A model generated the notes under the pieces. That model was not told the origin of the DNA. It did not search any database and worked only from the letters and a program-made list of their open reading frames with translations. Of a stretch of DNA of 64,000 nucleotides, positions 20,227-60,228 are shown piece by piece. Made by a program: the position numbers and the translations under genes. Source of the stretch: Acidimicrobiia bacterium. GTDB lineage: Bacteria > Actinomycetota > Acidimicrobiia > Spongiisociales > ZC4RG35. Positions within the stretch are counted from its first letter, which is position 1; each line of letters begins with the position of its first letter. The stretch is taken from the NCBI GenBank assembly GCA_965215185.1, contig OZ244034.1, positions 1,824,001-1,888,000 on the forward strand, read 5' to 3'.

Positions 20227-20372
20227 GGCCTCGATGGCGACCTCTACTGCAAGCCGGCGCAGATTGTCGCCGGTACCGGAGTCCGCCGTGCCCGGTCGGA
20301 CCCATCATGTGTCCCGCTGGCTCCGAGTCCCCTTGGATTGTTTAGGGACTTATATACCTGGGTAGACAAAGG

Positions 20373-20394
20373 TGTCACACCCGTTCGGTATTCT
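20373..20394 (+). promoter_or_regulatory. Putative tnpB promoter TGTCAC-N10-TATTCT (RecA-NDp/PafBC-like spacing), leaderless
   Basis: Same architecture in E2 and in the diverged E3; GTG start 7 nt after the -10 hexamer. Confidence 0.5.
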
Positions 20395-20401
20395 GGTTTG
20401 T

Positions 20402-21772
20402 GTGTATTTGGTGCAGACTTTTAGGTTTCCCGCTAAGTGTTCCCCGTCCGCTCATCGTCGGTTGACCGAGGTGTTTTCCATGTCCGCGGAGTTGTATAAC
20501 GCGGCGTTGGAGTCTTGGAGGGGAACATACGCGTGGTGGAGGGAACGCCATCCCGGAGAGGACGACAAGTTCCCCTCGGAGTTGCGGCGTTCGAAGTACG
20601 ACTTGATGAAAGAGTTCACGGGGGTTCGTTCGGATATTCCCGAGTGGGAGCGGCTGGCCGTCCAGGTGGGAAGGGGCGTTGTGTGTCGTTTCGACCGGAC
20701 GGTGAGTTCCTTCTACAAACGCTGCAAAGAAGGGGGCAAGCCGGGGTTTCCCCGCTTCAAGGCGTCCCGCCGGTGGAGGACCATAGAGATCCCGGACGCG
20801 TCGAGTTCCATGGTGGTTCCCCCCAGCACCTCCAAGAACGGTTCTGCTGTGTGGTGGAGACTCGCAGTGAAAGGCGTTCCGCGTCTTCGTTTCCGAGACA
20901 AAGGCCGTAGGTTGGCCGATGCCCTCGGTGGGGGCGCCCGGGTGGTGGAACTACGCGTGGTGAGAACGCCCCTCCGCACAGAGGTACACGTCGTGGTCCG
21001 CCACCCGGAGAGGAACATATCCAGGGTGGAGCCCGCCAATCCCGTGGGGATAGATGTCGGTTTGACGCACCGTTTGACCCTTTCGGGCGGGCAGGTCGTC
21101 CCCCCGCGGAAAGTGGACGCGTCCCGTGTCAAGAGGGCGCAGAGAAAACTGTCCCGTGCCAAGAAAGGCTCCCGCACCAGGGGCAAGAAAGCCCACGCGC
21201 TGGCCAGACTCCACCGCAGAGAAAAAGAGAAAGCCGTCCAGGCTGACTTCCGTCTCGCCCACCACCTCGTCCGCTCCTACGACGGGATAGCCACCGAGGA
21301 CCTCAACGTGACGGGGATGCTCAAATCGAAAAGGTTCTCCAAGAAAATGTCCGAACAACGATGGTCGTCCCTCGGGAACATCCTGGAATACAAAGCCGAG
21401 AAAGCTGGCATTCCATATGAAAGGGTGAATCCCCGCCACACCACCACAGACTGTTCGGCCTGCGGGCACCGACAGGCAATGCCTCTCCGGCAGAGGGTGT
21501 TTCACTGCGGGTCGTGTGGAATGTGCGTGGGTAGGGACGTCAACGCCGCAATCAACATACGCGCCCGGGCTTTTGGCCCGGCGTGGGTAGGGACGTCAAC
21601 GCCGCAATCAACATACGCGCCCGGGCTTTTGTGGTCGGGAGGGACCATCCCCGACGCGATGCGCGTAACAAACTTCGGCTGTAAGACAGGCACGCCCTCC
21701 GGGGAATGCTCTGCGGGTCGACATCGCAGAACAGTATCACCCACGGCGACATCCGTCTACCCAAGTATATAA
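20402..21772 (+). CDS. tnpB: TnpB-like RNA-guided endonuclease, intact
   Basis: N-terminal 'LYNAALE', 'GFPRFK', RuvC-I 'VGIDVG', RuvC-II 'IATEDL', Zn ribbon CSAC...CGSC, RuvC-III 'RDVNAAINI'; the stop codon lies inside the right TIR. Confidence 0.93.
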   Translation: MYLVQTFRFPAKCSPSAHRRLTEVFSMSAELYNAALESWRGTYAWWRERHPGEDDKFPSELRRSKYDLMKEFTGVRSDIPEWERLAVQVGRGVVCRFDRTVSSFYKRCKEGGKPGFPRFKASRRWRTIEIPDASSSMVVPPSTSKNGSAVWWRLAVKGVPRLRFRDKGRRLADALGGGARVVELRVVRTPLRTEVHVVVRHPERNISRVEPANPVGIDVGLTHRLTLSGGQVVPPRKVDASRVKRAQRKLSRAKKGSRTRGKKAHALARLHRREKEKAVQADFRLAHHLVRSYDGIATEDLNVTGMLKSKRFSKKMSEQRWSSLGNILEYKAEKAGIPYERVNPRHTTTDCSACGHRQAMPLRQRVFHCGSCGMCVGRDVNAAINIRARAFGPAWVGTSTPQSTYAPGLLWSGGTIPDAMRVTNFGCKTGTPSGECSAGRHRRTVSPTATSVYPSI

Positions 21773-21777
21773 GTCCC
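21650..21777 (+). ncRNA. Putative omega-RNA scaffold of E1
   Basis: Conserved blocks GCTGTAAGAC, ACAGT and ARGTATATAAGTCCC shared with E2-E4 and two solo loci; located at the tnpB 3' end. Confidence 0.65.
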
Positions 21778-23492: not shown

Positions 23493-25288
23493 GATTCGCC
23501 GCCACGAATCATCGGCAACCATCTCGGACTCCAGTCTTCATGTTGGTTGTCGGTGATTTGCGCCACATTTCCATCATCCACCTTCACTACTGCTATCTCC
23601 CAACTCTCCTGACTCCCTGCGCTGTCTTCGCCAGCCGGGATATGCCCGAAAGCGATGTAACCGCTGTCGGGTGACCAAACCGGGTCTGTTACCGCTCGAT
23701 GCTTGTTGTGAGTCAGTCGCCGGACGTCGGCTTCGTCCACAACCACCATGAAGATTTCCCATCCACCCTCCGTTACTGATCTGAAAGCAATCTTGGAGCC
23801 ATCTGGAGACCATGTAAGGCCGTATACGCCAACGCTGGCGTTCGTGAGTCGTCGAAGGTTTCTTCCGATGGCATCGCTTACGAATAGGTCACCCAGGCCG
23901 CCGGGCTCATACTGGGTGAAGGCGATTTGAGAACCGTCAGGAGACCAAACAGGGTATAGACCCCCACGGGCGTTCGTGAGTCGCTGCAGATCACCGCCGA
24001 ACTTATCCACCACGAACGCCCCATCCCGCAAGACGCTCGAACCGTTTCTGAGCTCCTCGCTTGTGCCATTAAAGGCGATCCGAGAACCGTCGGGAGACCA
24101 CATGAAATGCGGTTGGTCGCTGGCATTTTGAGTTGCTTGCCAGAACTGGGCGCTGCTTACATCTACAACGAATACCTGCCACCCGTGGTCCGCATAGTCG
24201 TTGAAGGCAATGTGGGAACCATCAGGAGACCACAGCAAAGTGTGCGGGTCGTGGTAGGGGGTTGCAAGAAGTTGCCGCAGATTGCTCCCATCCTTGTCCA
24301 CCACATACAAGAACCCACTGCCGTGGTGGGCGCTAGCAAAAGCGATTTGAGAACCGTCAGAAGACCACTCTGGATCCTGGATCCAGAGATTCTCCACAAT
24401 TTGTCTCCGGTTCTTGCCATCCGAATCTATTACGAAGAGCCCATAGCCATCGTTTCCGACGTAGGCGATCTGAGAACCGTCAGAAGACCAATCAGGATCC
24501 CTGCTGGACGTGATGGAGGTGAGCTGGCGCAGATTCCGACCATCGGCATCCACTAAAAGAACCTTGAACCCACCGTAGTAGCTGCCGCTGTAACTGCTGA
24601 AGGCCAGCCGCGGGACGGACCTGCTGACTCTCTGTGGCAGGGAGACGAGATTGAGAGCACGGGCGACAAATGCAGACATCTGCCCTCGGGTCATCAAAGC
24701 CTCAGGGCAGAATCGAGGCGGGTCAACATCGCACCCCAAGGTAATTCCCACAGCCGCAAGGGCATCAATGCTCTCTTCGTGGGTACTGCCCGCGGTGTCA
24801 ACGAACCCTGCCGTACCCGCTCTCCCGAGGAAAAACGCTCGGGTCAGAAACGTCGCCATCTGGGCGCGGGTCACTGACTGTTCAGGACAGAACCTGGCAG
24901 GTTCCACCGCACACCCTTTCGTCACCCCCAACTCGGCCAGCCGCTCCACAAAAGGCATCCACCACACTCCCGCATCGATATCCACGAACCGGGTGGAAAA
25001 CACCCCCTCAGGATCGGAGCCGTCCAACACCCGGACCAGCCATACCGCCATCACCCACCGCTCCATTACTTCATCGGGACACATCAAACCCTCCCCACAC
25101 TCCGTTCCGTCCAGAATGCCTCTCTCGGCCAAAGCATCCAGAGCCGACTCGTAAAACCCTCCATCATCATCGGTGAAAGAATCAGCGCTGACCGGACCCA
25201 ACACTCCCAATACCAACCCCAACGCGACAAGCATCGTCCAAAAACCGCTTCCCCGGAACCACTTCCCCCTTCTCACATTGCCATCCAT
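23489..25288 (-). CDS. SLH-domain protein with TolB-like (PD40) repeats, tandem paralog
   Basis: AGGAG RBS; SLH repeats 'VTRAQMATFLTRAF'; repeated 'WSPDGSQIAF'. Confidence 0.9.
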   Translation of the reverse strand: MDGNVRRGKWFRGSGFWTMLVALGLVLGVLGPVSADSFTDDDGGFYESALDALAERGILDGTECGEGLMCPDEVMERWVMAVWLVRVLDGSDPEGVFSTRFVDIDAGVWWMPFVERLAELGVTKGCAVEPARFCPEQSVTRAQMATFLTRAFFLGRAGTAGFVDTAGSTHEESIDALAAVGITLGCDVDPPRFCPEALMTRGQMSAFVARALNLVSLPQRVSRSVPRLAFSSYSGSYYGGFKVLLVDADGRNLRQLTSITSSRDPDWSSDGSQIAYVGNDGYGLFVIDSDGKNRRQIVENLWIQDPEWSSDGSQIAFASAHHGSGFLYVVDKDGSNLRQLLATPYHDPHTLLWSPDGSHIAFNDYADHGWQVFVVDVSSAQFWQATQNASDQPHFMWSPDGSRIAFNGTSEELRNGSSVLRDGAFVVDKFGGDLQRLTNARGGLYPVWSPDGSQIAFTQYEPGGLGDLFVSDAIGRNLRRLTNASVGVYGLTWSPDGSKIAFRSVTEGGWEIFMVVVDEADVRRLTHNKHRAVTDPVWSPDSGYIAFGHIPAGEDSAGSQESWEIAVVKVDDGNVAQITDNQHEDWSPRWLPMIRGGES

Positions 25289-25904
25289 CACGACTCCTAC
25301 AACACGGCCGATCAGCCGGTACCTATACAGACTATGCCGGAGACGTCCCGAAGACCGCGCCGAGTCTGTCTGGGCCGGTTCGGCGTCATCCAGGATGCGG
25401 ACCAGACAGCCATTGCCCACCGCGGCATGGTTTGCACCGTAATCGCTACTGCGCCCACTACTTGACGGAGTCTCGCCTAGGTTCGGTCAGGCGCCTACGG
25501 TTAAGTCAGGGGATGCGGTCGAGGAGCGTCAAGCCGGCTCCGATGACTCCTGCCGGCGGGCCGCAGGTTCCCACCAGGATCGGAGTTTCCCGCGCCCGGT
25601 CGGACCACACCGACCGGCAGGGTACCTCTCCTATTCGCTCCAACGTCTGGATAAGGCCCTCCGGTCGAAAGCGCCGGAGTCCGCGGCCGGAGCCGAGACG
25701 GACCGGTCGGGCGGTGGTAACGCATCCGGGCAGCAGCCAATGCCCACCCTGGTCGAGGCTTCCCGCGCCGGTGCGAGTGGATAGCGTCTCGGGTCGGTTT
25801 CGCGGGGGCCGGAACTCGGAGCATTCGAGCAGGAAGGGGGCATACACTTCCCGTCACAGAGACGAGTCCGTCCTACACCGCCTACAAGGGGAGGTAGCTC
25901 CAAA

Positions 25905-37304: not shown

Positions 37305-37562
37305 CCCCGCCGGGCCCGGCGCCGCTCCCCGGGGCAGGGCAACTGCCAATCTCATCTTGACCCGCACCTCCCGTTCAGACCACCTGTGCCTGAACGTGGC
37401 GGGCGATGGCCACGACAGATCAATAGTCCTCTCCCCCGAGCAGCGAACCTGGCGGTGGAGAGAACTATTGATGAGGATGGAGGTTTTCGGACCGACTACT
37501 GATGATTCGGGTTGATTTCGGCGGGCGGTTCTGCCAAAATGGGGCCGGTAGCGTCACCAGAC

Positions 37563-37653
37563 GCTCATCCAGAGCGGTGGAGGGATCAGGCCCCGCGAAA
37601 CCGCGGCAACCAGTCGGCACAGCCGACACGGTGCCAACGCCTGACCGATGGGT
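37563..37653 (+). ncRNA. SAM riboswitch (SAM-I clan, P4 apparently absent)
   Basis: CTCATCCAGAGCGGTGGAGGGA...GGCCC...GAAACC..GGCAACC...GGTGCCAA..CCTG..GATGGG; P1 CTCATC/GATGGG; upstream of metX. Confidence 0.9.
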
Positions 37654-37660
37654 AAAGGAG

Positions 37661-38912
37661 GGGACTTATATACCTGGGTAGACAAAGGTGTCACACCCGT
37701 TCGGTATTCTGGTTTGTGTGTATTTGGTGCAGACTTTTAGGTTTCCCGCTAAGTGTTCCCCGTCCGCTCATCGTCGGTTGACCGAGGTGTTTTCCATGTC
37801 CGCGGAGTTGTATAACGCGGCGTTGGAGTCTTGGAGGGGAACATACGCGTGGTGGAAGGAACGCCACCCCGGAGAGGACGACAAGTTCCCCTCGGAGTTG
37901 CGGCGTTCGAAGTACGACTTGATGAAAGAGTTCACGGGGGTTCGTTCGGATATTCCCGAGTGGGAGCGGCTGGCCGTCCAGGTGGGAAGGGGCGTTGTGT
38001 GTCGTTTCGACCGGACGGTGAGTTCCTTCTACAAACGCTGCAAAGAAGGGGGCAAGCCGGGGTTTCCCCGCTTCGTTTCCGAGACAAAGGCCGTAGGTTG
38101 GCCGATGCCCTCGGTGGGGGCGCCCGGGTGGTGGAACTACGCGTGGTGAGAACGCCCCTCCGCACAGAGGTACACGTCGTGGTCCGCCACCCGGAGAGGA
38201 ACATATCCAGGGTGGAGCCCGCCAATCCCGTGGGGATAGATGTCGGTTTGACGCACCGTTTGACCCTTTCGGGCGGGCAGGTCGTCCCCCCGCGGAAAGT
38301 GGACGCGTCCCGTGTCAAGAGGGCGCAGAGAAAACTGTCCCGTGCCAAGAAAGGCTCCCGCACCAGGGGCAAGAAAGCCCACGCGCTGGCCAGACTCCAC
38401 CGCAGAGAAAAAGAGAAAGCCGTCCAGGCTGACTTCCGTCTCGCCCACCACCTCGTCCGCTCCTACGACGGGATAGCCACCGAGGACCTCAACGTGACGG
38501 GGATGCTCAAATCGAAAAGGTTCTCCAAGAAAATGTCCGAACAACGATGGTCGTCCCTCGGGAACATCCTGGAATACAAAGCCGAGAAAGCTGGCATTCC
38601 ATATGAAAGGGTGAATCCCCGCCACACCACCACAGACTGTTCGGCCTGCGGGCACCGACAGGCAATGCCTCTCCGGCAGAGGGTGTTTCACTGCGGGTCG
38701 TGTGGAATGTGCGTGGGTAGGGACGTCAACGCCGCAATCAACATACGCGCCCGGGCTTTTGGCCCGGGGTCGGGAGGGACCATCCCCGACGCGATGCGCG
38801 TAACAAACTTCGGCTGTAAGACAGGCACGCCCTCCGGGGAATGCTCTGCGGGTCGACATCGCAGAACAGTATCACCCACGGCGACATCCGTCTACCCAAG
38901 TATATAAATCCC
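37661..38912 (+). mobile_element. E2: near-identical copy of E1 with an internal deletion (1252 bp)
   Basis: Same TIRs (right TIR ...TATATAAATCCC); 8-bp TSD TAAAGGAG at 37653-37660 and 38913-38920. Confidence 0.95.
37718..38907 (+). pseudogene. tnpB: tnpB with a 130-bp frameshifting deletion
   Basis: Lacks E1 positions 20759-20888; joined at a CTTC microhomology. Confidence 0.88.
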
Positions 38913-38925
38913 TAAAGGAGAGTCG

Positions 38926-40101
38926 GTGACAATCAGCGCCCCCAACCCGCCTAACGGCCCTGAGTCTCGAACTTTGACGCCCACCCAAACCCAGTTCGTC
39001 CGCCTTGACGGTCCATTCACCACCCTGAGCGGCAGGACCATCCCGGAGGTGACTCTCGCCTATGAGATGTACGGGGAATTCAACAAGGCCCGAGACAATG
39101 TCATACTGGTGTTCCACGCCCTGACCGGAAGCCAGCACGCGGCAGGATTCAACCCGTCGGTGCCCGGGGTGGGAGATCTGTGGACCGAAGAGATGCAAGT
39201 CGGCTGGTGGGAGGATTTCATCGGACCCGGACGGGCGCTAGACACCAACAAGCACGCCGTGTTGTGCGTCAACTACCTGGGCGGATGCTATGGGTCAACC
39301 GGCCCGTCCTCCCTCAACCCCGCCACCGCCCGCCCCTACGGTTCGGCTTTTCCCTCCCTGACCATCACCGACATCGTGGACTCTCAGGTGCAGCTATTGG
39401 ACAAGCTGGGCATTGAACGGCTCCACGCCTGCACGGGAGGTTCGGTGGGTGGCCTGTTGGCGGTGGTGCTGGGGACCCGCTATCCCGACCGGGTGAACGT
39501 GGTGATACCCATCGCGGCGGGTCTGGAAGTCACCATCTTGCAGGTAATCCACAATTTCGAGCAGATGTTCGCCATCATCGCCGACCCCCATTTTCAGGGC
39601 GGCGACTTCTACGACGGTCCCCGACCCGACCTGGGGTTGGCCCTGGCCAGGATGATCAGTCACAAGACCTTTGTCTCCCTGACCGCCTTTCGGGAGCGAA
39701 TCCGCCACCAGATCATGGAGCAGGAGTACCTGGCCGGATACCGAGTGCAGCACCCGATGGAGTCGTACATGCTGCACCAAGGGGAAAAGTTCGTGGAGAG
39801 ATTCGACGCCAACACCTATCTGCGGGTGGTGCGGATCTGGCAGAAGTTCGATCTTCTCAAAGAGGTGGGTGGCCAGACTTTCGGGGACCTGTTGAGCCGG
39901 TGCCGAAACCAGCAGTGGATGGTCTTCACCATCGATTCGGATGTCTGCTTCTATCCCGGCGAGCAGGAGAACATGGTCAAGGAACTCAACGCGGCGGGGG
40001 TGCCGGCTCTATGGCACACCGTGCATTCCAACAAGGGCCACGACGCCTTCCTGTTGGAGCCTGACAAGTTCAAACCGGGTCTGCGGGCAGTTTTGGGTTA
40101 G
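38926..40101 (+). CDS. metX: Homoserine O-acetyltransferase
   Basis: 'HALTG', 'GGCYGSTGP', 'GGSVGG', 'RFDANTY', 'GHDAFL'; SAM riboswitch upstream. Confidence 0.92.
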   Translation: MTISAPNPPNGPESRTLTPTQTQFVRLDGPFTTLSGRTIPEVTLAYEMYGEFNKARDNVILVFHALTGSQHAAGFNPSVPGVGDLWTEEMQVGWWEDFIGPGRALDTNKHAVLCVNYLGGCYGSTGPSSLNPATARPYGSAFPSLTITDIVDSQVQLLDKLGIERLHACTGGSVGGLLAVVLGTRYPDRVNVVIPIAAGLEVTILQVIHNFEQMFAIIADPHFQGGDFYDGPRPDLGLALARMISHKTFVSLTAFRERIRHQIMEQEYLAGYRVQHPMESYMLHQGEKFVERFDANTYLRVVRIWQKFDLLKEVGGQTFGDLLSRCRNQQWMVFTIDSDVCFYPGEQENMVKELNAAGVPALWHTVHSNKGHDAFLLEPDKFKPGLRAVLG

Positions 40102-40114
40102 TCGCCTCCGCCGA

Positions 40115-41146
40115 TTAGCAAAGTTGCACCGAAGGCTTGCCTTCGATCACTTCTCCGATCGTCGCGGAGTGGACACCTTCGGCCGCCAGGCGGGCAGTGA
40201 GAGTCTCCACCCGGGAGACGGGTACCGAGATCAGCAGTCCCCCGCTGGTCTGGGCGTCGCACACCAGGCGGCGGGAAATTTCGTCACCTCCCAAGAGTCT
40301 GTGATCAACCGCGGCCAGGTTGCGAAGGCTTCCCCCCGGATAGTGTCCGGCGGCCAGCAGTCGTTCCGCGCCCGGCAGCAGCGGCAATCGGGAAATCTGG
40401 ATCCGAGCGGCCGCCCCGGAGGCGTCCAGCATGGAGAGCAAGTGCCCCGCCAAACCGTAGCCGGTCACGTCGGTGGCCGCCGAAACCCCCACCGAGGTCA
40501 TCGCCCGGCAAGCCGCATCGTTGAGGGCGCTCATCTCCTCCACCGCCGCCTCCAAAGACTCCGAAGGACAATCACCCACCTTGTGGGCAGTGGTGATGAT
40601 CCCGGTTCCGAGCGGTTTGGTCAACACCAGGCGGTCGGTAGGCCGCGCTCCGCAATTGGTGATCACCTCCTCCTCCGCCGCGATCCCCGTCACCGCGAAC
40701 CCGTACTTGGGCTCGGGATCGTCAATGGTGTGTCCGCCCACCACCGTGCACCCCGCCCGGGCCATGATCTCCGCCCCGCCCAGGGCCACCTCCCCGAGAA
40801 TATCAAGCGAAAGGTCCTGGGAGGGCCAGCACATCAACTGAAGCGCCGTGAGGGGCCTGCCCCCCATGGCGTATACATCGGAGAGAGCGTTGGCGGCGGC
40901 GATCCGCCCCCACGTCCGGGGGTCGTCCACCACCGGAGTGAAGAAGTCCACCGTCTGGATGAGGACGCGCCCCTCCGACAGGCGGTATACGCCTGCGTCG
41001 TCGCGGGTCTTCACCCCCACCACCAATTGAGGTGAGGAGAAGGCGGGATGATTCTGCAAATGGCGCAGCACCTGCGCCAGCTCGGCCGATCCGAGCTTGC
41101 AGCCTCAGCCAGCGCCGTGACTGAACTGGGTGAGCCTGATGTCCAT
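40115..41146 (-). CDS. selD: Selenide, water dikinase with in-frame UGA (selenocysteine) at codon 14
   Basis: MDIRLTQFSHGAG-TGA-GCKL is in frame with the 318-aa ORF ('DDAGVY', 'QTVDFFTPVVDDP', 'TDVTGYGL', 'DAQTSGGLL'). Confidence 0.93.
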
Positions 41147-41159
41147 CGCCACAAAGTTA

Positions 41160-41290
41160 GGGACTTATATACCTGCGCGCCCAATTTGGGCGCCGCGGGC
41201 GCCACTGTTTCACCGGGTCCGCCAAATGCTTTTGGCCGGAGTCGACTGGCGTCTTACAGCAGATATTCGTGGACTGACCACCGTCTATTT
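41160..41290 (-). ncRNA. S1: stand-alone omega-RNA-like scaffold plus TIR, no tnpB
   Basis: Minus strand: TCTGCTGTAAGAC (41251-41263), ACAGT (41204-41208), hairpin GCGCCCA/TGGGCGC, AGGTATATAAGTCCC end at 41160. Confidence 0.7.
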
Positions 41291-41391
41291 CGAAGTCACC
41301 ATGTTGTTTCAACAGCCGGCGGCGAGGTGGGGCCCGCCAGCCTTATGCATCGTCGGCTCGACCCTCCGATCGCGACGATATCCTTTGGCGG

Positions 41392-41874
41392 GTGATAACC
41401 GAAGAAACAAGCACCTTCCTCACTCCCGAAGCACACCAACGGCTTCACGCTGAACTGGCGGAGCTCAAAGGACCCAAGAGGATCGAGATTTCCGATCGCA
41501 TCGCCGAGGCCCGCTCGCACGGCGACATCCGAGAAAACGCCGACTACCACGCCGCCAAGGACGAGCAAGGTCTGATGGAGGCGCGGATCGTCCACTTGGA
41601 GAGGGTTCTGCGCGACGCGCAGGTGAGAGAGGTCCACGACACCGGCAAGGTGGAGATCGGCTCGATGGTGACCGTGGTGGACAGCGATGGCGACAAACTG
41701 GAATTCCTACTGGCGCCGGCCGAGAACCGCGGATCGGCCCGGTTGGTGGTCTCGCCCACCAGTCCGTTGGGCAGCGCCGTGCTGTCCAAGTCACCCGGCG
41801 ACCTGGTGGCCTATGTGGCTCCCGGTGGAAAGTTCCAAGTAAGAGTCACCTCGGTTCGCCCCTTCTCGGGCTGA
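41392..41874 (+). CDS. greA: Transcription elongation factor GreA
   Basis: 'ARSHGDIRENADYHAAKDEQ', 'SPTSPLG'. Confidence 0.95.
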   Translation: MITEETSTFLTPEAHQRLHAELAELKGPKRIEISDRIAEARSHGDIRENADYHAAKDEQGLMEARIVHLERVLRDAQVREVHDTGKVEIGSMVTVVDSDGDKLEFLLAPAENRGSARLVVSPTSPLGSAVLSKSPGDLVAYVAPGGKFQVRVTSVRPFSG

Positions 41875-41960
41875 CCGGGCGCCTGTCCCGGGCTCCCTTC
41901 TACAGGGCCGGGGCAATGGTGGGAGGTTGACGGGGACAAGCCCGTAACCTCTTTGAGACA

Positions 41961-43364
41961 ATGAAGTTGCGACTGGATCGCCCCCGGGAACTGGCCCAGC
42001 GCCTCCGCAGGGCCGCTCATCTTCGGCCCACCGAAGTCGAAGAGTACCTGGGCGCCAACATCCAGATGTGGAAGGCTCTGGCGGAGGCTTCTCCCCATGA
42101 TGCGGCAGACATCCTGGAGTCGGTCTCCCCCGAAATAGCCGGGGAGTTGCTTGGCCCCCTCGATCGCCAACAGAGCGCCCCAGTACTGGAGGAGCTGCGC
42201 GATACCCTGGCAGCCACTCTGCTGGAGGCACTGCCCATTTCGGAAGCGTCGGCGGTGTTGGAGGAGATGCCATCCACCGAGGCGGTGGACATTCTGGAGA
42301 ACATGCCCGCCGAAACGGTAACCGCCTTGATCGACCTGATGGCGGAACCGGCCAGTTCGGAAGTCAACCGGCTATTTCACTACCCATCCGACACCGCCGG
42401 GGGCCTGATGACCACCGAGGTGGCGGTGCTGCCCATCGGACTGACCGCCGGGGAGGCGATCGAGCGGATCCGCAATATCCGGGAAATGGTGGATGACCTC
42501 ACCTATGTTTATATCGTCGACGACTTCGGAGCCCTGCGGGGGGTGCTCTCTTTTCGGGACCTGGTATTTGCGAGACCATCGGTAGGTCTGGACGAGGCGA
42601 TGGAAGCCAACCCGATAGTGGTGCACGCCACCGCCGACCGGGAAGAAGTCTCCGAGCTGATGCAGCGCTACCGGCTGCTGGGGTTGCCGGTGATAGACGA
42701 TCTGGGTCACCTGCAGGGGATGGTGACCTATGACGAGGTGATTGACGCCGTGCAAGCCGAGGCCTCCGAAGACTTCGCCACCTCGGTGGGAGCGGGCGCC
42801 GAGGAAACCATCCACACCAGCGTGTTCTCCTCGGTAAGAATGCGCCTGCCCTGGCTGACCCTCAACCTGTTCCTGGCCTTGATCGTGGCGTTCGTGATCG
42901 AGCGGCAGACCGGGATCATCTCGGCCGAGCCGGTGCTGGCGGCGCTGATGCCGGTGGTGGCGCTTCTGGGCGGCAACGGCGGAGTCCAGAGCCTGGCGGT
43001 GGTGATACGTTCCATGGCGATAGGGGATCTGCCCCGGGCCCGGATCTGGACGGTGCTGAGACGCCAGCTGGGGATCGGGCTCTTCAACGGCGCCTTCTTG
43101 GCGGTGGCCGCCATGCTCCTGACCCTGGCGCTTCTATCAGGGGATCTATTCCACTCCAACTACGGCGCCACCAAGGTGGCGCCCGTGGTGGGACTGGCGG
43201 CGCTGGCCAACCTGACCATCGCCACCCTGGCAGGCTCCGGCATTCCCATCGCGCTGCGCAGATTGGGTTTCGACCCGGCCCTTGCCTCCAGCATCTTCCT
43301 GACCCTCATCACCGATGTAGTGGGATTCGGAGGATTCCTGATGGTGGCCGCAATCCTGCTGTAA
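41961..43364 (+). CDS. mgtE: Magnesium transporter MgtE
   Basis: CBS pair, 'RLPWL', 'GGNGGVQS', 'DPALAS...TDVVG'. Confidence 0.93.
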   Translation: MKLRLDRPRELAQRLRRAAHLRPTEVEEYLGANIQMWKALAEASPHDAADILESVSPEIAGELLGPLDRQQSAPVLEELRDTLAATLLEALPISEASAVLEEMPSTEAVDILENMPAETVTALIDLMAEPASSEVNRLFHYPSDTAGGLMTTEVAVLPIGLTAGEAIERIRNIREMVDDLTYVYIVDDFGALRGVLSFRDLVFARPSVGLDEAMEANPIVVHATADREEVSELMQRYRLLGLPVIDDLGHLQGMVTYDEVIDAVQAEASEDFATSVGAGAEETIHTSVFSSVRMRLPWLTLNLFLALIVAFVIERQTGIISAEPVLAALMPVVALLGGNGGVQSLAVVIRSMAIGDLPRARIWTVLRRQLGIGLFNGAFLAVAAMLLTLALLSGDLFHSNYGATKVAPVVGLAALANLTIATLAGSGIPIALRRLGFDPALASSIFLTLITDVVGFGGFLMVAAILL

Positions 43365-43405
43365 GCCGCCTCGCGAAAAACCGCCCAGAATTACAGCCTC
43401 AAACC

Positions 43406-43435
43406 TTGACGTTTGTCACACACAGATCCCATATT
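43406..43435 (+). promoter_or_regulatory. Sigma-A-like promoter TTGACG-N18-CATATT
   Basis: Directly upstream of a structured intergenic RNA candidate. Confidence 0.45.
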
Positions 43436-43441
43436 GACGAC

Positions 43442-43612
43442 AGCAGCCCCGTGTGGTTAGGTGGCTAATCCGCGATCGGCCTGATCTCCATCCAACATGG
43501 ATCGGCGCCCTCACCACTGAAGATGTCACCGACGACAAGTTCGGTGGATCCGGTTGGGAGTGGCGGCTGCCGGGCTACTCGGGTGGCCACCCAGACTTGC
43601 GGGCACACGGAA
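43442..43612 (+). ncRNA. Structured ncRNA candidate (6S RNA-like)
   Basis: Nested pairings CCGTGTG/CACACGG, GGTGGCTA/TGGCCACC, CGCC/GGCG, CACCGA/TCGGTG form a ~165-nt rod with internal loops; intergenic between convergent genes. Confidence 0.5.
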
Positions 43613-43623
43613 TATCCGGCGGC

Positions 43624-44199
43624 TCAGGAGCCGATTATGAACCCCTCCAGATTGGCGAAGGGACCCTGGAAACGGAGGATGGAACCTTCCAGCAGGCTCA
43701 CCAGATAGTGACGGTCCAGCAATTCGGATTCGTCCGCAGTCCGCTCTTCCTCCGCCTTGACCAACACCTCCACCGCATCTCGGTTGTCGAACACGTGGAC
43801 CTCGTAGAGGTCATCGCGCTCCTCGTACACCGACAGCACCAGATTCTCAAGTTCGCGATCGGTGTAGCTGCCCGAGGGGATCTCCAGGAACAACCGGTTG
43901 CCGTCGCGGGTCGGCTCCTGGCGGACCACCCGATAGAAGATCTCGCTGGCCTCCACGGCGTCGGTTTCGGTGTCCGAAGCGTCCTCTGCGGTCTCGGCCG
44001 GTTCCTCAACCATGGTGGGGGTATCAGGAACAGTGGTGGTTTCAAGCTCCGGAGCCGTGGTGGTGGAGGCGGCGGTGGTCACCACCCGGGAGGTGGTTGT
44101 GACCAAAGCCGGAACGTCGTCGCTTCCACAAGCCGCTGCCGCAACCGATAACAATGCGGCCACAACACAGAGCTTGAGGAGCCCTTTGTACCTGCTCAT
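43624..44199 (-). CDS. Hypothetical lipoprotein
   Basis: Lipobox 'AAAAC', Thr-rich linker. Confidence 0.75.
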   Translation of the reverse strand: MSRYKGLLKLCVVAALLSVAAAACGSDDVPALVTTTSRVVTTAASTTTAPELETTTVPDTPTMVEEPAETAEDASDTETDAVEASEIFYRVVRQEPTRDGNRLFLEIPSGSYTDRELENLVLSVYEERDDLYEVHVFDNRDAVEVLVKAEEERTADESELLDRHYLVSLLEGSILRFQGPFANLEGFIIGS

Positions 44200-44248
44200 G
44201 TCAATAGTCTCCGATTCGATGTTGCCCACTCGGGTGGAAGGGGCTCCT

Positions 44249-45079
44249 TCAGGATCCATCAATTGCCTGCTGGATTCGTCTCTTGAATCCGGCGATCAGT
44301 CGGGCGGTCACCGGGCCCGCTGTATACCGGTGGTCATCCAACTCCACGATCGGGGTGATTTCCCGGGTGGTTCCGATCACCATCGCCTCATCGGCTCCCA
44401 ACATGCGATCCAGACCGAAACGACCCTCCCGGCAAGGTATGCCGAGTTCGGATACCATGTCCAGCACCACCCGGCGGGTGATGGAGTCGAGGATCCACAA
44501 ATCCAAGGATGGGGTCTCGAACACCCCGTCACACACCCAGGCCACCGAGAACACCGGTCCCTCCAAGACAGTCCCGTCCTCGGAAACGAGCAACGCCTCG
44601 TCGTATCCCTCCTTCACCGCCCGGCGGGTGGAAGCCATGTTCGGCGCGTAGGAAAGGGTCTTGCCGCCGGCCAGATCCCATTTGTGCCCGGACGAATGCC
44701 AGGGGGCGGTCATCACCTTGAGACGAATCCGGTCCGCCCGGGAGGAAACGTCCTGCCACATCACCACGCACACTTTTTCACCCGGCTGCTGGCCCCGGCC
44801 CAGCACCACCCGGATCAATCCCTCCTCGCCACAAGCCAACACCTGCTCCACCCAGGAATCGAGATCGGACCGGTCGGGCGTTTCCAGATCCAGCATCTCG
44901 GCGGATCGTTCCAGCCGGTCGAGATGAGGGCCGGCCTCAAAGGCGTGGCCCCCGTAGACCCGCATCACCTCGAAGCACCCGTCGCCTCTCAGGATGGTGG
45001 GGCTGTTGATCGAGAAGATCATCTCTCCCGAGGGCTGCCCGTTGACCAGGATCGTGGGTGCGCTCACAGCCGGTTCCAT
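44249..45079 (-). CDS. Aminotransferase class IV (IlvE/PabC-like)
   Basis: 'RGDGCFE', 'HLDRLERSA', 'KTLSYA.N', 'ILDSITR'. Confidence 0.88.
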   Translation of the reverse strand: MEPAVSAPTILVNGQPSGEMIFSINSPTILRGDGCFEVMRVYGGHAFEAGPHLDRLERSAEMLDLETPDRSDLDSWVEQVLACGEEGLIRVVLGRGQQPGEKVCVVMWQDVSSRADRIRLKVMTAPWHSSGHKWDLAGGKTLSYAPNMASTRRAVKEGYDEALLVSEDGTVLEGPVFSVAWVCDGVFETPSLDLWILDSITRRVVLDMVSELGIPCREGRFGLDRMLGADEAMVIGTTREITPIVELDDHRYTAGPVTARLIAGFKRRIQQAIDGS

Positions 45080-46728
45080 CCACTGGTGAGGGGGCGGCGA
45101 CGATCCCGTCCCAGATTCTTGGTGGTGACTTTGGGACCGGGCGCGGATTGGTGTCTCTTGTATTCGGCTCGCTCCACCAATCCCACCACCCTTCGCACCA
45201 TCACCGGATCGTAACCCGACGCCGTGATCTCGTCCACCGAAAGCTCCGAATCTATGTACATGCCCAACACGGAATCCAAATCATCATAGGGAGGCAAGGA
45301 GTCGCTATCAAGCTGGTTGGGACGTAATTCCGCAGAGGGAGGCTTGGTGATAATCCCTTGCGGAATCACCGGATGGCGGCGGTTCCTCCACTGTGCCAGA
45401 CGGTACACCCAGGTCTTGTAAACGTCTTTGAGAGGAGCAAACCCTCCCACCATATCGCCATACAGGGTGGAGTAACCGACCGCCAGTTCCGACTTGTTGC
45501 CCGTGGCCAGCACCAAACCGCCGTGCTGGTTGGAGACGGCCATCAAAAAGGCACCCCGGGCGCGGGCTTGCAGGTTTTCTCCGACGATTCCCCAACCGGC
45601 GGCGCCCATCACCGGCGACAGGCTGTCCATGAAAGCACTGTGCACACGTTCGATGGGGACCATGTCGAAACGGATACCCAGATTGGAAGCCAACCGCTTG
45701 GCGTCGGTCTTGGAGTGCTCGGAGCTGTACACCGACGGCATGGAAATCCCCCAAACCCGATCCGCTCCCAAGGCGTCGGCGGCCAGACAGGCGGTTACCG
45801 CCGAATCGATCCCTCCCGAGAGGCCCACCACCGCCGAGTTGAACCCGTTCTTGCGCACGTAGTCGCCGGTGGCCAGAGTCAACGCCTCCCACACCTCCTC
45901 TTCGGATCCCATCCAGTCTCTTTCCGGGGGCGGTGGCGAGGTGGACGCCCCGGGGAGGGGAATGTCCACAATGAAACGGTCCTCGCCGAACTGGGGCGAT
46001 CGATGCAGGATCGAGCCGTCGGAGGAGGCGACCAGCGAAGCGCCGTCGAACACCAACTCGTCCTGGCCTCCCACCAGGTTCAGATAAACCAGAGCGGTTC
46101 CCGCACTCCGGGCGCGCTGGGACACCAAGGCTTCACGCTCCGAAGCCTTCCCCCGGTGATAGGGAGAGGCGTTGAGATTTACGATCACCCCGGCTCCCGC
46201 CGCGGCTAACTGTTGCCAGGGGCCGTCTTCGGTCCACAGGTCCTCACATATGGAGACTCCCACCTCGACCTGCCCGACCGGCCAGGTGCGAAGAGGGTCA
46301 CGTCCGGGATAGAACCACCGACGCTCGTCGAAAACACCGTAGTTGGGCAGAACCCGCTTGCGATAGACACCCTGAATGCGGCCTGCTCGCAAGATCGCCG
46401 CGGCGTTGGCCACCCGCCCGGAGAAGGCGTCGCCTGCACCGGGCAGGTCTTTTTGGGGAGAGGAGTCCAGGAAGCCCACCACCGTCACCGTTCGACGGGA
46501 CCGCTCGGCCAGCCTCTCCACTACGGCTCGATTGGCCTCCAGGAAGTCGCCGCGCAACGCCAAGTCCTCGGGCGGGTATCCGCAGACCGCCAACTCGGGA
46601 AACACCAGAAGATCGACATTTTGATCCTCCGCCCAGTCCATCGCGTCCAGGATTCGGCGGCAGTTGCCCTCCAAGTCCCCCACCACCATGTTGAGTTGGG
46701 CGCCGGCGATCCGAATCGTCATCCCCAT
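45064..46728 (-). CDS. nadE: Glutamine-dependent NAD+ synthetase
   Basis: CN-hydrolase domain ('FPEL', 'ICED') plus 'GLSGGIDS', 'TGNKSE', 'PSAEL'. Confidence 0.95.
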   Translation of the reverse strand: MGMTIRIAGAQLNMVVGDLEGNCRRILDAMDWAEDQNVDLLVFPELAVCGYPPEDLALRGDFLEANRAVVERLAERSRRTVTVVGFLDSSPQKDLPGAGDAFSGRVANAAAILRAGRIQGVYRKRVLPNYGVFDERRWFYPGRDPLRTWPVGQVEVGVSICEDLWTEDGPWQQLAAAGAGVIVNLNASPYHRGKASEREALVSQRARSAGTALVYLNLVGGQDELVFDGASLVASSDGSILHRSPQFGEDRFIVDIPLPGASTSPPPPERDWMGSEEEVWEALTLATGDYVRKNGFNSAVVGLSGGIDSAVTACLAADALGADRVWGISMPSVYSSEHSKTDAKRLASNLGIRFDMVPIERVHSAFMDSLSPVMGAAGWGIVGENLQARARGAFLMAVSNQHGGLVLATGNKSELAVGYSTLYGDMVGGFAPLKDVYKTWVYRLAQWRNRRHPVIPQGIITKPPSAELRPNQLDSDSLPPYDDLDSVLGMYIDSELSVDEITASGYDPVMVRRVVGLVERAEYKRHQSAPGPKVTTKNLGRDRRRPLTSGWNRL

Positions 46729-46744
46729 AAGAATACGGAATAAT

Positions 46745-46858
46745 CACCGCGTTCGGACAGAAGATCTTCTGCTGTGAAACCCGACCCTCCCAGGGAGGGC
46801 AACGCTGGCGGAAACAGTATCCCTTTAGCCCCGTTGGGCACTCAGGTTTATAAGTCCC
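46745..46858 (+). ncRNA. S2: stand-alone omega-RNA-like scaffold plus TIR, no tnpB
   Basis: TCTGCTGTGAAAC (46768-46780), AACAGTATC (46813-46821), hairpin GCCC/GGGC, CTCAGGTTTATAAGTCCC end at 46858. Confidence 0.68.
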
Positions 46859-46916
46859 TATCTTTGCGGTTGATGACGCTTGATGCCACAGGCGGCCGGG
46901 ACCGCTCCGACCGCCG

Positions 46917-47312
46917 GTGAAGGCCAGACAATCTCCGGTTAGCAGCGGCTTTACGGCGCTGGCGGTTTTCTGTGGCGGGTCGTTGGGAGCTGTGGGTCGT
47001 TTCGGCCTCGGCCAGTGGCTGGAGCCGGTGGGCGAGATCGTGATCGCCACTGTGGTGGCCAACCTGGTGGGATCGGCGATACTCGGAATCCTGGCCGGGT
47101 TGGCCGAGCGACGGGCGCACCGGGGTGTGTTGTGGGCGCTGTTGGGGGTAGGCTTCGCCGGCGCATTGACCACCTTCTCCACCTTTGCGTTGGAAGCCTT
47201 GGCCCTGCTGGAAGGACCGGGCCTGCTCATAGCGGCGCTCTACGCCGGCGGCAGTGTGGTGGCCGGTTTATGGATGGCGGCGACTGCCCGGCAGCGGAGT
47301 TTGGCGTGGTGA
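46917..47312 (+). CDS. crcB: Fluoride channel FluC/CrcB
   Basis: 'GGSLGAVGR', 'ANLVG', 'GFAGALTTFSTF'. Confidence 0.9.
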   Translation: MKARQSPVSSGFTALAVFCGGSLGAVGRFGLGQWLEPVGEIVIATVVANLVGSAILGILAGLAERRAHRGVLWALLGVGFAGALTTFSTFALEALALLEGPGLLIAALYAGGSVVAGLWMAATARQRSLAW

Positions 47313-52116: not shown

Positions 52117-53529
52117 GGGACTTATATACCTGAGTACCCGAGGGTGCTCTGATACTGTATCTGTGTCGTCTGCCTGCCGTTTCGCCCCGAAGAGCTCGCC
52201 GGTCTTACAGCAGAGGTTTGTATAGCGCGACACATCGGCTGACAGTCCCGGCCGATCCCGAGGTTCCCGGTGGGGAAAGCCTCGGGCGCATATGTTTCTT
52301 GCGGCGGTGTGGTCTCTGCACATGATGAGACCGCACCCTCCGCACTCGTACACTCGCACAGACAGAGGCATGCTCTGTCTGTGACCGCAGCACGAGCAGT
52401 CCGTGGAGGTGTGTGACGGGTTTACTCTCACATACGGGACACCAGTTTTCCAGGCTTTGTGTGCCAGTATCTGACAGAGAGTCTCCCATCTTTGTTCGGA
52501 CATCTTCTTGGAGAACCTCTTGGATCTGAGCATTCCCCCCACGTTCAAGCCCTCCACCGCCATGCCGTCGTGGGCGCTCACCAACTGGTGGGCTAGGCGG
52601 AAGTCGGCCTGTCGGGCTCGTTCCTTTTCTCTGCGCCACACCTTGGCGTGAGCCGCCACCTTCTTGCGGCGTGAGAGGGAACCTTTCTTCGATCTGCTGA
52701 TCTGGCGCTGGGTTCTCCTTATAGCGGAGCGATCCACCACTGGAGCGGGGATGCTCCGCCCGTTCGAGGTGGGAAGGCGGATGTGCAGTCCCAGGTCTAT
52801 ACCCACCGGATGTTGCGGCTCCTTCTCGGCCATGGGGCGGTGCGGGTGTCTCAGCACCACCTGCACCTCGGTTCTCAGAGGAGTGCGCACCACTCGCAGT
52901 TCCACCACCATGGCGCCGAGACCGAGCGCGGTAGCGAGTCGGTTGCTCCGGTCGGAGAACCGCAACCGAGGTACACCCTTCACCTGCAATCTCCACCATC
53001 GTTCCGATTGGTTGTTGCCGGTACCGGGCGCACAGACCATGGATGGGGTCGGATCGGGTATCTCTATGGAACGCCAACGGTGCGAAGGCTTGAAGCGCGG
53101 ATACCCCCGGGCCTTCCTCCTTCTTTGCACCTGCGATAGAAGGCGGCTCTGGCCCTGTCAAAACGGCGGATGACCCCTCTGCCTACCTTGACGGACAGCC
53201 GGTTCCACTCCGCAAGATCCTCGCGGACCCCGGTGAACTGCTTTATCAAGTCCTACTTGGATTGGTTCAGTTCGGAAGGGAACGTCTCCGTTTCCAGATT
53301 ATGGTGTTCCTTCCACCATGAGTATGCGCCTTTCCACGACTCCAGGCAGGCGTTGTACATCTCGGCGCACATTCCGAAAATCTCCGTGAGCCTGCGGTGC
53401 TGGGAGGGTGAACACTTGGCGGGCAGGTGCATGGCCTGAAACCAAACATCCATAGGGTGTCAGCGTACCCAGAGGGTGTGACACTCTTTGCGCGTTAGGA
53501 GCCCGTGGGCAATCAGGTATACAAGTCCC
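52117..53529 (-). mobile_element. E3: diverged TIR-bounded tnpB element (1413 bp), no TSD
   Basis: TIRs GGGACTTATATACCTGAGTACCC (52117) and GGGCAATCAGGTATACAAGTCCC (ending 53529). Confidence 0.9.
52122..53453 (-). pseudogene. tnpB: tnpB with a nonsense codon (53253) and a frameshift (~53110)
   Basis: 'MYNACLESWKG', 'GYPRFK', 'VGIDLG', 'MAVEGL', 'CRDHTAARNI' spread over three ORFs. Confidence 0.88.
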
Positions 53530-58824: not shown

Positions 58825-60228
58825 GGGACTTATATACCTAGGTTGACAGAGCGTCTAGGTGATACTGTTCTGCGGTGTCTGCCAGCATCTTCCGGCCTGA
58901 GCCGAAAGATGTCTTACAACAGAGATTTGTAGAGCGCACCGCGTCGGGAAACACGAGGTCATGTCCCACCCGACCCCAAGGATCCCAGGTGGGATAGTCT
59001 CGGGCGCATATGTTGATTGCAGCATTGTGGTCTCTGCACATGGTCAGTCCACACTGTTCGCACCGGAAGGTTCTCACGTTGAGGGGCATCTTTTGGTGAT
59101 GCCCGCATCGGGAACAGTCGGTGGAGGTGTGGCGAGGGTTTACCCCCGCATAGTGGACACCAGCTTTCGCGGCTTTGTGTTCCAGTATGAGATCGAAGGA
59201 TCCCCAGCGTTGCTGTGACATCTGTTTGGAGAACAGCTTGGTTTTCAGCAGTCCGGCGATATTGAGCTTTTCGACAGCTATGCCGTCGTAGGCCTTGACC
59301 AGGCGGTCGGCCAGGCGGAAGTCCGACTGGATGGCCTGTTCCTGTAGGCGGCGGTGCTGTTTGGCGAGAGTGTTTGCGCTTCTTGATGCGAGACCGTGAT
59401 CCCTTGACGGACCTGCTGAACCGGCGCTGAGCGCGCAACGCCTGTCGCAGATCCACGGTTGTGGGTGGTAGGTGTTCGCCGTCGGAAGTGACCAGGCGTG
59501 ACTTGAGGCCCTTGTCCAAACCGACGGGATTGACAGGATCTGCCACCGGTGGGCGGTCAGGGTGCTTGATGACCGCGTGTATCTCGACTCGCAGAGGAGT
59601 GCGGGCCACTCGCAGTTCCACCAGCCGGCCGCTCTCCAACGCGGTAGTGAGGCGGTCGTGTTTGTCCTCGAACCGTATCTGCGGCACGCCCTTCACCTGT
59701 AGTCTCCACCACTTCTCGCTGTGGTTCTTTCTCTCTCCCGGAGCTTTGAGCATCGCGCGGTCAGCGTTCACAATCTCTATCGACTTCCACCGGTGACGCG
59801 GCTTGAAACGGGGAAACCCGGCCTTCTTGGAAGGGTCCTTACATCTCTTATAAAAGGCCTGAATAGACCGGTCGAAGCGGCGCAACGTTCCGCGCCCCAC
59901 TCGAAGGCTCAAACGCTGCCACTCAGGATGGTCCTTGCGTACATCGGTGAACATCCGCAGACGGTCATAGTGAGACTGGTTCAGTTCTAGGGGAAGGGGT
60001 TCGTCGGGATGGTGTTCTTTCCACCACCGGTATGTGCCCTTCCATGATTCCAGGCATGCGTTATACAACTCGCAACACTGCGCGAAGATGTCATCCAAAC
60101 GACGGTGCGCCGAGCGGGAACAATGCCCTTTCAGCCGGATCGTCTGCACCCAAGGAACCATCATCTAAAAATATCCCACCCCTGCGAAAAAAGGGGTGGC
60201 TGGTTGTCAACCTAGGTATATAAGTCCC
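58825..60228 (-). mobile_element. E4: diverged TIR-bounded tnpB element (1404 bp), no TSD
   Basis: Perfect 24-bp TIR GGGACTTATATACCTAGGTTGACA at 58825-58848 and 60205-60228. Confidence 0.93.
58838..60164 (-). pseudogene. tnpB: tnpB with a single frameshift (~59375)
   Basis: 'LYNACLESWKG', 'GFPRFK', 'VGLDKG' in one frame; 'IAVEKL', CxxC pairs and 'CRDHNAAINI' in the next. Confidence 0.88.

Follow-up and report, generated by a model that had tools for sequence, protein, structure and literature searches.

The selD-greA spacer and its insert

The stretch of DNA analysed here (the window, 64,000 nucleotides) belongs to a 3.12-Mb, 60.7% G+C genome of an Acidimicrobiia bacterium, called G000 where it has to be told apart from others. 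Within it the gene for selenophosphate synthetase, selD (40115..41146, minus strand), diverges from greA (41392..41874, plus strand), and the spacer between the two holds S1, a short locus with a transposon terminus at one end and motifs resembling the omega-RNA, or guide RNA, of TnpB nucleases. The initial annotation described S1 as a stand-alone omega-RNA-like locus whose guide covers the selD -10 box and start codon, and offered two accounts of it: an eroded element that has kept no more than its RNA part, or a guide RNA acting in trans for the TnpB of an intact element, E1. The evidence set out below makes it likely that S1 is a non-autonomous remnant in decay that has no RNA function itself.

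The selD product (343 aa, with AIRS and AIRS_C domains) is of the selenocysteine type, translation starting at 41146 and reading through one TGA at codon 14 (41107-41105). On the minus strand the sequence approaching the gene runs ...CAGGTATATAAGTCCC to the end of the element at 41160, followed by the hexamer TAACTT (41159-41154), TGTGGCG and the ATG (41146-41144). selD and greA are divergent neighbours at all 15 same-genus loci that hold both genes, and at each of these the selD ATG is preceded by TGG and then TAG(C/T)TT, with a spacing to the start codon of 7 nt in 14 cases and 8 nt in one. The arrangement suggests an extended -10 box positioned for a leaderless selD transcript, so that the leaderless architecture proposed in the initial annotation from TAACTT-N7-ATG gains support from the relatives. 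In G000, TAACTT stands at the same distance from the ATG, and the end of S1 takes the place of TGG and of all the sequence further upstream.

From selD to greA the spacer measures 245 bp in G000, as against 32-122 bp in 13 of the relatives; in two more, G011 and G002, it is 178-179 bp. Since the native -10 box of the relatives lies at the same place and their spacers are shorter, S1 is an insertion, and the octamer that follows it, TAACTTTG (41152..41159, minus strand; the selD -10 hexamer, 41159-41154, makes up its first six bases), is presumably the native target itself. The comparison of this region among relatives, which had been put forward as a check, thus assigns the flank to the native promoter and S1 to the insert. 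What had been read as a guide would then be just the flanking target octamer and the first codons of selD, and it would cover a -10 box because an A/T-seeking element landed on the only A/T-rich octamers nearby. Whether the 20-nt flank of S1 is counted from the terminus or from the far side of the octamer, no other place in the genome matches it with two mismatches or fewer.

A consensus scan of 40950-41550 on both strands found no sigma-70-like promoter and no terminator. Other genes in the window have signals of the selD kind. TATCCT (41379-41384) precedes the GTG of greA by 7 nt; nadE has TATTCT-N7-ATG, with the ATG at the third codon of the longest open reading frame (ORF); and a 15-codon ORF reads TATCTT-N8-ATG ... 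CCGGTGA, overlapping the crcB start. All three (41379-41391, 46720-46735 and 46859-46920) look leaderless, and their motifs recur in relatives. Strong comparative support exists for the view that (extended) -10 boxes drive leaderless selD, greA and nadE and the crcB leader in this Acidimicrobiia genus.

S1 itself is about 141 nt long (41160-41300, minus strand) and lies between two genes, not at the 3' end of any tnpB. At its selD side is a right-end inverted repeat (41160..41184), which agrees with the family terminus without a mismatch over its last 16 nt; this segment belongs to a repeat with five occurrences in one orientation in the window and further ones in the opposite orientation. The body (41185..41280) is recognised by nhmmer, covariance-model alignment and sequence identity as a diverged copy of the structured, omega-RNA-like 3' region of TnpB elements. 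A possible eroded left inverted repeat, GGTGACTT..AAATA, occupies 41281..41300; it is proposed from the left ends of relatives and of the family and from the length of the insert. It matches the left terminus only at GG(T)GACTT and AAATA, and its distance from the right end (141 nt) agrees with a 143-nt sister element in G002 and G011. A tblastn search with the two intact TnpBs of the genome returned nothing between genome positions 1862904 and 1876198, so none was found at S1.

Much of the initial description was borne out. The scaffold motifs and terminal inverted repeat on the minus strand are real, the terminus belonging to a repeat family and the body being found, if weakly, by both covariance and hidden Markov models (HMMs); the tblastn search agrees that S1 has no tnpB; and the sequence is diverged indeed, no more than 60% identical to any of 35 other copies. 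The extent originally given, 41140..41290, falls slightly short of the end near 41300. The absence of a partner terminus nearby holds only in part, given the eroded left-end candidate at 41300-41281 and a second solo right end, S2, 5.6 kb away.

The parental TnpB transposons

The elements from which S1 appears to derive carry a single gene between inverted-repeat termini. Its product is assigned to NCBIfam guided_TnpB (E 4e-56 for E1) and to Pfam OrfB_IS605 and Cas12f1-like_TNB. The TnpB of E1 matches the solved TnpB structures 8h1j and 8exa (E about 3e-23) and aligns with them through the RuvC and zinc-finger region; we take the acidic residues within its GIDVG, ATEDLN and RDVNAA stretches to be the catalytic positions. 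E1 is a full element (20345..21777, plus strand) with inverted-repeat ends, a 466-aa TnpB and the 8-bp duplication ATTGTTTA. E1' (37661..38912, plus strand) is a 98-99% copy of it with internal deletions and the duplication TAAAGGAG, and two minus-strand elements, at 52117..53529 and 58825..60228, have frameshifted tnpB genes; the terminus variant of the former looks closest to those of S1 and S2 among the elements in the window.

The termini of the family are 23-30 nt long and the target duplications are direct, 8 bp in length and variable in sequence. Perfect duplications flank four of the eight paired elements of G000 that are tnpB-sized or larger, with seven of eight positions matching at one more; in G011 they flank four of six near-identical 1.33-1.38-kb copies, often without a TA; and a copy in a Caldilineaceae-labelled genome also has an 8-bp duplication. 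Twenty of 30 octamers that follow right ends have at least six A/T, where about 4% would be expected from base composition (the count was made by eye and the expectation by a hand binomial from that composition). This shows a bias of the family towards A/T-rich octamers.

The last 130 nt or so of the element, compared in 15 tnpB-linked copies, fit a nested fold of 20 pairs that is 89.6% paired, with nine pairs changed on both sides. Covariation on this fold is 0.388, against 0.175 in shuffles, none of 500 of which scored as high, and when the partners are slid by 1-3 columns only 23-47% of cells pair. Such a structured 3' region is as expected for the guide-RNA scaffold of a TnpB element, a role predicted here from its fold and position. 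No Rfam family matches it; the one match, on the 3' end of E1, is at chance level.

Decay of these elements is common. G000 has two uninterrupted tnpB genes of 466 and 468 aa (in E1 and at genome 1952610-1954085), beside five copies with frameshifts or internal deletions, a 3' fragment whose terminus is cut (genome 1469110-1469386) and a 5' fragment (2886115-2886452). It also has a 268-bp protein-less miniature inverted-repeat transposable element (MITE; 472016-472283), and G011 has protein-less copies of about 275 and 360 bp. Among 30 right ends in relatives, 25 have TnpB-coding similarity upstream, several with large internal deletions, and five have none. A comparison of solo left ends with solo right ends had been suggested in the initial annotation as a means of recognising simple decay; truncated ends of both kinds occur, and by that measure simple decay is favoured.

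E1 and E1' have features of their own. In E1 a 56-bp tandem duplication (window 21525-21631) lies in the 3' end of tnpB, doubling the RuvC-III/zinc-finger-distal segment and putting about the last 50 codons in another frame; E1' has a single unit. Just beyond E1, at 21828-25420, two long minus-strand ORFs (564 and 643 aa) contain repeats with a period of about 135 nt, including 11 copies of a 31-nt core, and probably encode beta-propeller-like repeat proteins. E1' sits exactly between a S-adenosylmethionine (SAM) riboswitch (37562-37654, 69.6 bits), the only Rfam match at gathering score across the window, and a metX-like alpha/beta-hydrolase gene (38926-40101). The riboswitch presumably controls this gene, and E1' parts the two by 1.25 kb.

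A 17-nt terminus of the family recurs in genomes labelled Caldilineaceae, Tepidiformaceae, Ca. Foliamicus, Silicimonas and a gammaproteobacterium, among others, as well as in further genomes labelled uncultured Acidimicrobiia. Several of these hold repeated copies, and of four terminus places examined in three such genomes, three have tnpB (two copies in G032 and one in G033). In G011 no pair of termini is more than 1.41 kb apart, which leaves no room for a second gene in those copies. Judged from sequence, the family was recently active, is present in several phyla and has TnpB as its only gene. A full-text literature search turned up no account of bacterial elements that carry TnpB alone and make 8-bp duplications; supplements may list such elements.

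The ends and duplications point to insertion by a DDE-like cut-and-paste mechanism, and no transposase gene sharing the termini was found in G000 or G011. Genes for IS256-type and ISL3-type transposases are present in G000, G002, G003 and G011. The active ISL3 of G002 has different termini, and a search of the sequence on either side of the intact ISL3 of G000 gave no 11-nt inverted repeat. The only IS630 gene seen beside the terminus, in an IS630-family element of the Caldilineaceae-labelled genome G031 (G031:C1:1007700-1009900, positions 838-2016; 363-aa transposase, E 1.5e-83), was set aside because that element is a nested insertion at CTAG inside an element terminus; IS630 elements duplicate TA at CTAG. 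Surveys of neighbouring genes could mistake such a nested insertion for an association of TnpB with IS630.

Related termini also surround other cargo. A 3.5-kb unit (G000:C1:952908-956420) shares with the TnpB elements their termini, the right-end scaffold and a perfect 8-bp duplication, with a 640-aa ORF in place of tnpB. This ORF has no relative in Pfam, NCBIfam or the Atlas, and a search with it found nothing in 16 same-genus relatives; it has one 70% paralogue in G000 (1955727-1957637), beside another element. With that single paralogue and none in the relatives, it was set aside as a candidate transposase and is regarded as cargo. An 8.3-kb unit (G000:C1:2074717-2083010) is bounded by 23-nt inverted repeats, the first 13 nt of which resemble the terminus of the TnpB elements, and by a 7-8-bp direct repeat (TTATTAA). 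Its four ORFs encode an SbcC-like 1354-aa protein, DUF2397, DUF2398 and DUF3323/DUF2399, a set that we take to be Wadjet/JetABCD-like, and the unit has the appearance of a defence system that rides as cargo in a transposon lacking a transposase.

Divergence of S1, its sister insert and S2

The covariance model used here was built from the 15 tnpB-linked right ends only, S1, S2 and the sister inserts being left out. It matches S1 at 41160-41290 on the minus strand with 31.9 bits (E 1.5e-6 in 72 kb). Most of this signal is the terminus, because a bare left terminus by itself scores 30.6 bits with the same model. A scaffold HMM lacking the terminus, run with nhmmer against the whole 3.12-Mb genome, finds S1 at 41214-41270 (E 0.016) and S2 (E 0.0071); these rank directly after nine tnpB- or cargo-linked copies, and the next, chance match has E 3.6. 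Since both matches adjoin a solo terminus in the right orientation, the homology of the two scaffolds to the family appears real but faint. Rfam has no match on S1 at E values up to 1.

S1 is 55-60% identical to its eight nearest copies, which include the tnpB-linked ones of G000 itself. Laid on the family fold by independent covariance-model alignment, it forms 14 of 20 pairs and breaks six (two in helix 1, three in helix 3 and one in helix 4), so that the 5' strand of helix 1 is not intact and helix 3 has lost three of its five pairs. Its own folding energy equals that of shuffled sequences (minimum free energy z-score -0.04). In one DNA run, three variant places lie inside S1, as against one in the 5.4 kb to its right, which is weak support for relaxed constraint in a run that may be the sample the window was assembled from. 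The same run (X3) yields alternative 49-nt contigs within S1 (window 41186-41287), with A>G at 41287, and this indicates at least two haplotypes of S1 in the sample. On the RNA side, where an omega-RNA locus would give a processed transcript with about 16-20 nt of flank as its guide, the only runs found were two metatranscriptomes (6-9% of sampled words); over 40100-47100 they gave fragmentary, short contigs only in selD, greA and nadE, with 90-99% likeness, and no piece covers S1 (41160-41300) or S2.

In G011 and G002 the selD-greA spacer holds a homologous 143-nt element in the same orientation as S1, and its left terminus can still be recognised. Compared with S1, its right end is 12 nt further upstream of the -10 box, and its left end abuts the greA -10 box. 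The two copies differ at 13 of 144 columns (91.0% identity), five of the differences falling in the last 30 nt, and in the adjacent selD 193 of 213 fourfold sites are identical (90.6%). The comparison shows the sister insert to be evolving at the neutral rate, with no sign of constraint.

A SelD tree (single gene, midpoint rooting, one of three outgroup rows being the unpublished G021) places G002 and G011 together inside a nine-genome clade (support 100/98), the other seven members of which lack the insert, and G000 outside that clade. Two independent insertions are far more economical on this tree than one gain and many precise losses. A single old insertion common to G000 and to G002 and G011 was rejected on the strength of the tree and of the insertion points 12 nt apart, and S1 is thereby shown, on this phylogeny, to have inserted independently of the sister element.

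S2 (46742..46858, plus strand) is a second protein-less right-end remnant, 5.6 kb from S1; in the repeat analysis of the window, the selD-adjacent terminus of S1 is 86% complementary to it over 36 nt. It abuts TATCTT (46859-46864), which in relatives is a native hexamer 5-8 nt before the ATG of the short ORF that overlaps the crcB start, and 6 nt separate its other boundary from the -10-like hexamer of nadE. All three protein-less copies at the selD-greA and S2 loci abut a -10 box at one end. Read outward as an inverted repeat, the flanks of S1 and S2 agree at nine of 11 positions, a likeness attributed to both being -10 boxes with similar downstream bases, which does not fully explain it. That S1 and S2 are the ends of one 5.7-kb mobile unit was rejected: selD, greA and nadE have the same order and about the same spacing in G011 and G002, and the flanks are inverted, not direct.

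Remnant, promoter or guide RNA

Taken together, these observations fit S1 best as a MITE-like derivative, about 141 nt long, of TnpB transposons with inverted repeats and 8-bp target duplications, and presumably of MITE origin with an eroded left end. The family enters A/T-rich octamers, which in a 61% G+C genome with leaderless genes are largely -10 boxes; this would be the reason that the right end of S1 is flush against the selD -10 hexamer. The omega-RNA-like motifs would be inherited from the structured 3' region of the parent and now be decaying, and the only likely present effect of S1 would be on promoter context, TAACTT-N7-ATG being kept while the conserved TGG and the sequence upstream of it were replaced. 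The first account given in the initial annotation, an eroded element reduced to its RNA-coding right part, is the one that the divergence, the broken pairs and the decay forms of the family sustain.

Several points weigh against this interpretation. No copy of TAACTTTG precedes 41300, so the 8-bp target duplication is missing. The last 16 nt of S1 are perfect while its putative left end is almost gone, which could reflect selection on the right end or mean that S1 never had a left end. On an earlier, smaller structure S1 forms nine of 13 pairs, and both elements with intact tnpB also form nine of 13 each; as these score no better than S1, pair counts discriminate only weakly. In another lineage an independent insertion entered the selD-greA spacer in the same orientation, and S2 likewise abuts a -10 box; such repeated hits could hint at selection beyond target bias. 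Finally, we infer the absence of an RNA function in S1.

Some of these same facts would suit a possibility that we regard as unlikely, in which the leaderless selD has co-opted the right end of S1 to supply promoter sequence upstream. The A/T-rich terminus, or TTGGGC 19 nt upstream of TAACTT, might stand in for the TGG; alternatively, a promoter in the terminus and directed outward might give a transcript with a short leader. The TGG kept by 15 of 15 relatives was removed and selD is nevertheless intact, the last 16 nt of the terminus show no change, S2 repeats the arrangement (TTGGGC, 19 nt, TATCTT), and the -10 box is abutted in each of the three protein-less copies. That said, the consensus scan gave no sigma-70-like promoter on either strand, and the 19-nt spacing here exceeds the canonical 16-18 nt of that scan. 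The sister insert, 12 nt further upstream, keeps no fixed geometry to the -10 box and evolves neutrally, with five of its 13 differences in the last 30 nt, and target bias alone accounts for the position of S1.

A bolder proposal, that S1 and S2 survive from a class of protein-less guide modules with an undescribed bacterial type of TnpB transposon as parent, seems to us very improbable. In its most far-reaching form the elements would home on the -10 boxes of leaderless genes, and the intact TnpBs would use in trans an RNA of the right end, read towards the gene; the repeated hits in the selD-greA spacer would then reflect targeting or selection, not chance.

We give about as little credence to the second account of the initial annotation in its specific form, in which S1 RNA is loaded by an intact TnpB (that of E1 or of 1952610-1954085), cleaves selD promoter alleles free of S1 and so protects the insertion. 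Palindrome-associated transposable elements (PATEs) of IS200/IS605 are thought to protect their insertions in the same way, and these described protein-less derivatives, which encode guide RNAs, need TnpB in trans (PMC10055086). G000 does contain a potentially cognate TnpB with a seemingly intact RuvC triad, in two uninterrupted genes, one of which (E1) aligns with solved TnpBs with acidic residues in all three motifs. The 3' region of the family is structured (covariation above all 500 shuffles), and S1 keeps 14 of the 20 pairs. But S1 is at most 60% identical to the copies whose TnpB would have to load it, including the tnpB-linked ones of its own genome; six pairs are broken, with helices 1 and 3 the most damaged; and upstream of S1 there is no co-directional gene or consensus promoter, greA being divergent. 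The flank has no second site, the sister insert evolves at a neutral rate, and both types of end are found truncated. The duplications are variable, hence there would be no fixed adjacent motif by which to tell empty from filled sites. The claim of a trans-acting guide for the E1 TnpB is thus unsupported.

Repression of selD by S1 RNA and a nuclease-dead TnpB relative bound at the -10/start region can be all but dismissed: domesticated TnpBs of the TldR type exist (PMC10705468) and the flank does cover the -10 box and start codon, but that geometry carries no information when the RNA of every element "targets" its own flank alike, and tblastn with the two intact TnpBs found only these elements and fragments in G000 and none at S1, no family-profile search for a distant homologue having been made.

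Comparison with described systems places S1 among known kinds. The IS200/IS605 elements, including the tnpB-only IS1341 group, are characterised as having no terminal inverted repeats and no target duplication, with subterminal hairpins and a fixed target motif (PMC13565253 and PMC3119063); the parent family of S1, with inverted termini and variable 8-bp duplications, differs and is not placed there. PATEs of Geobacillus stearothermophilus (PMC10055086) and Haloquadratum (PMC3119063) are, like S1, short non-coding derivatives of TnpB elements that keep the guide-RNA right end, and S1 too would depend on TnpB in trans. PATEs have subterminal palindromes and neither inverted-repeat termini nor target duplications, whereas the parents of S1 have both and S1 itself is decayed. 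With MITEs S1 shares small size, a non-coding sequence and termini homologous to a full-length element (covariance model E 1.5e-6, nhmmer E 0.016), and internal-deletion intermediates occur in the family. It differs in that its left terminus is nearly erased, no target duplication remains, and the parent carries TnpB and no recognisable transposase.

The IS630-linked "DDE-6" branch (PMC10691335) also has TnpB within inverted terminal repeats, with solo TnpB copies sharing the ends; in the present family the duplication is 8 bp and G000 and G011 show no transposase with shared termini, and we do not assign it to that branch. In the Fanzor/TnpB elements among eukaryotic cut-and-paste transposons, a TnpB-family gene is likewise all that a non-autonomous element encodes between its inverted repeats, target duplications are made, and the guide RNA runs past the duplication (PMC10711439). 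Those elements are reported there from eukaryotes and their viruses, unlike the present, bacterial family (metagenome-assembled genomes labelled Acidimicrobiia, Caldilineaceae and others). TldR guide RNAs (PMC10705468) resemble S1 in being TnpB-type guides complementary to a promoter region; S1 differs in that tblastn with intact TnpBs found no dead TnpB, no protein gene of this kind is adjacent and the complementarity is to its own flank. Since PATEs and TnpB elements with symmetrical ends are both known, S1 therefore joins a known kind of protein-less derivative.

By itself, then, S1 is an ordinary transposon fossil, and it illustrates a trap: any TnpB right-end remnant "targets" its landing site, and a guide covering a promoter says nothing on its own. 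The less ordinary part is the parent family, TnpB-only with inverted-repeat ends and 8-bp duplications. Its related termini around cargo other than TnpB (the 640-aa protein and, with a variant terminus, the Wadjet-like set) suggest a trans-acting mobilisation system that is still to be found. Remnants of the S1 family repeatedly abut -10 boxes, and the -10 boxes of leaderless genes in this genus are seen to attract A/T-seeking transposons.

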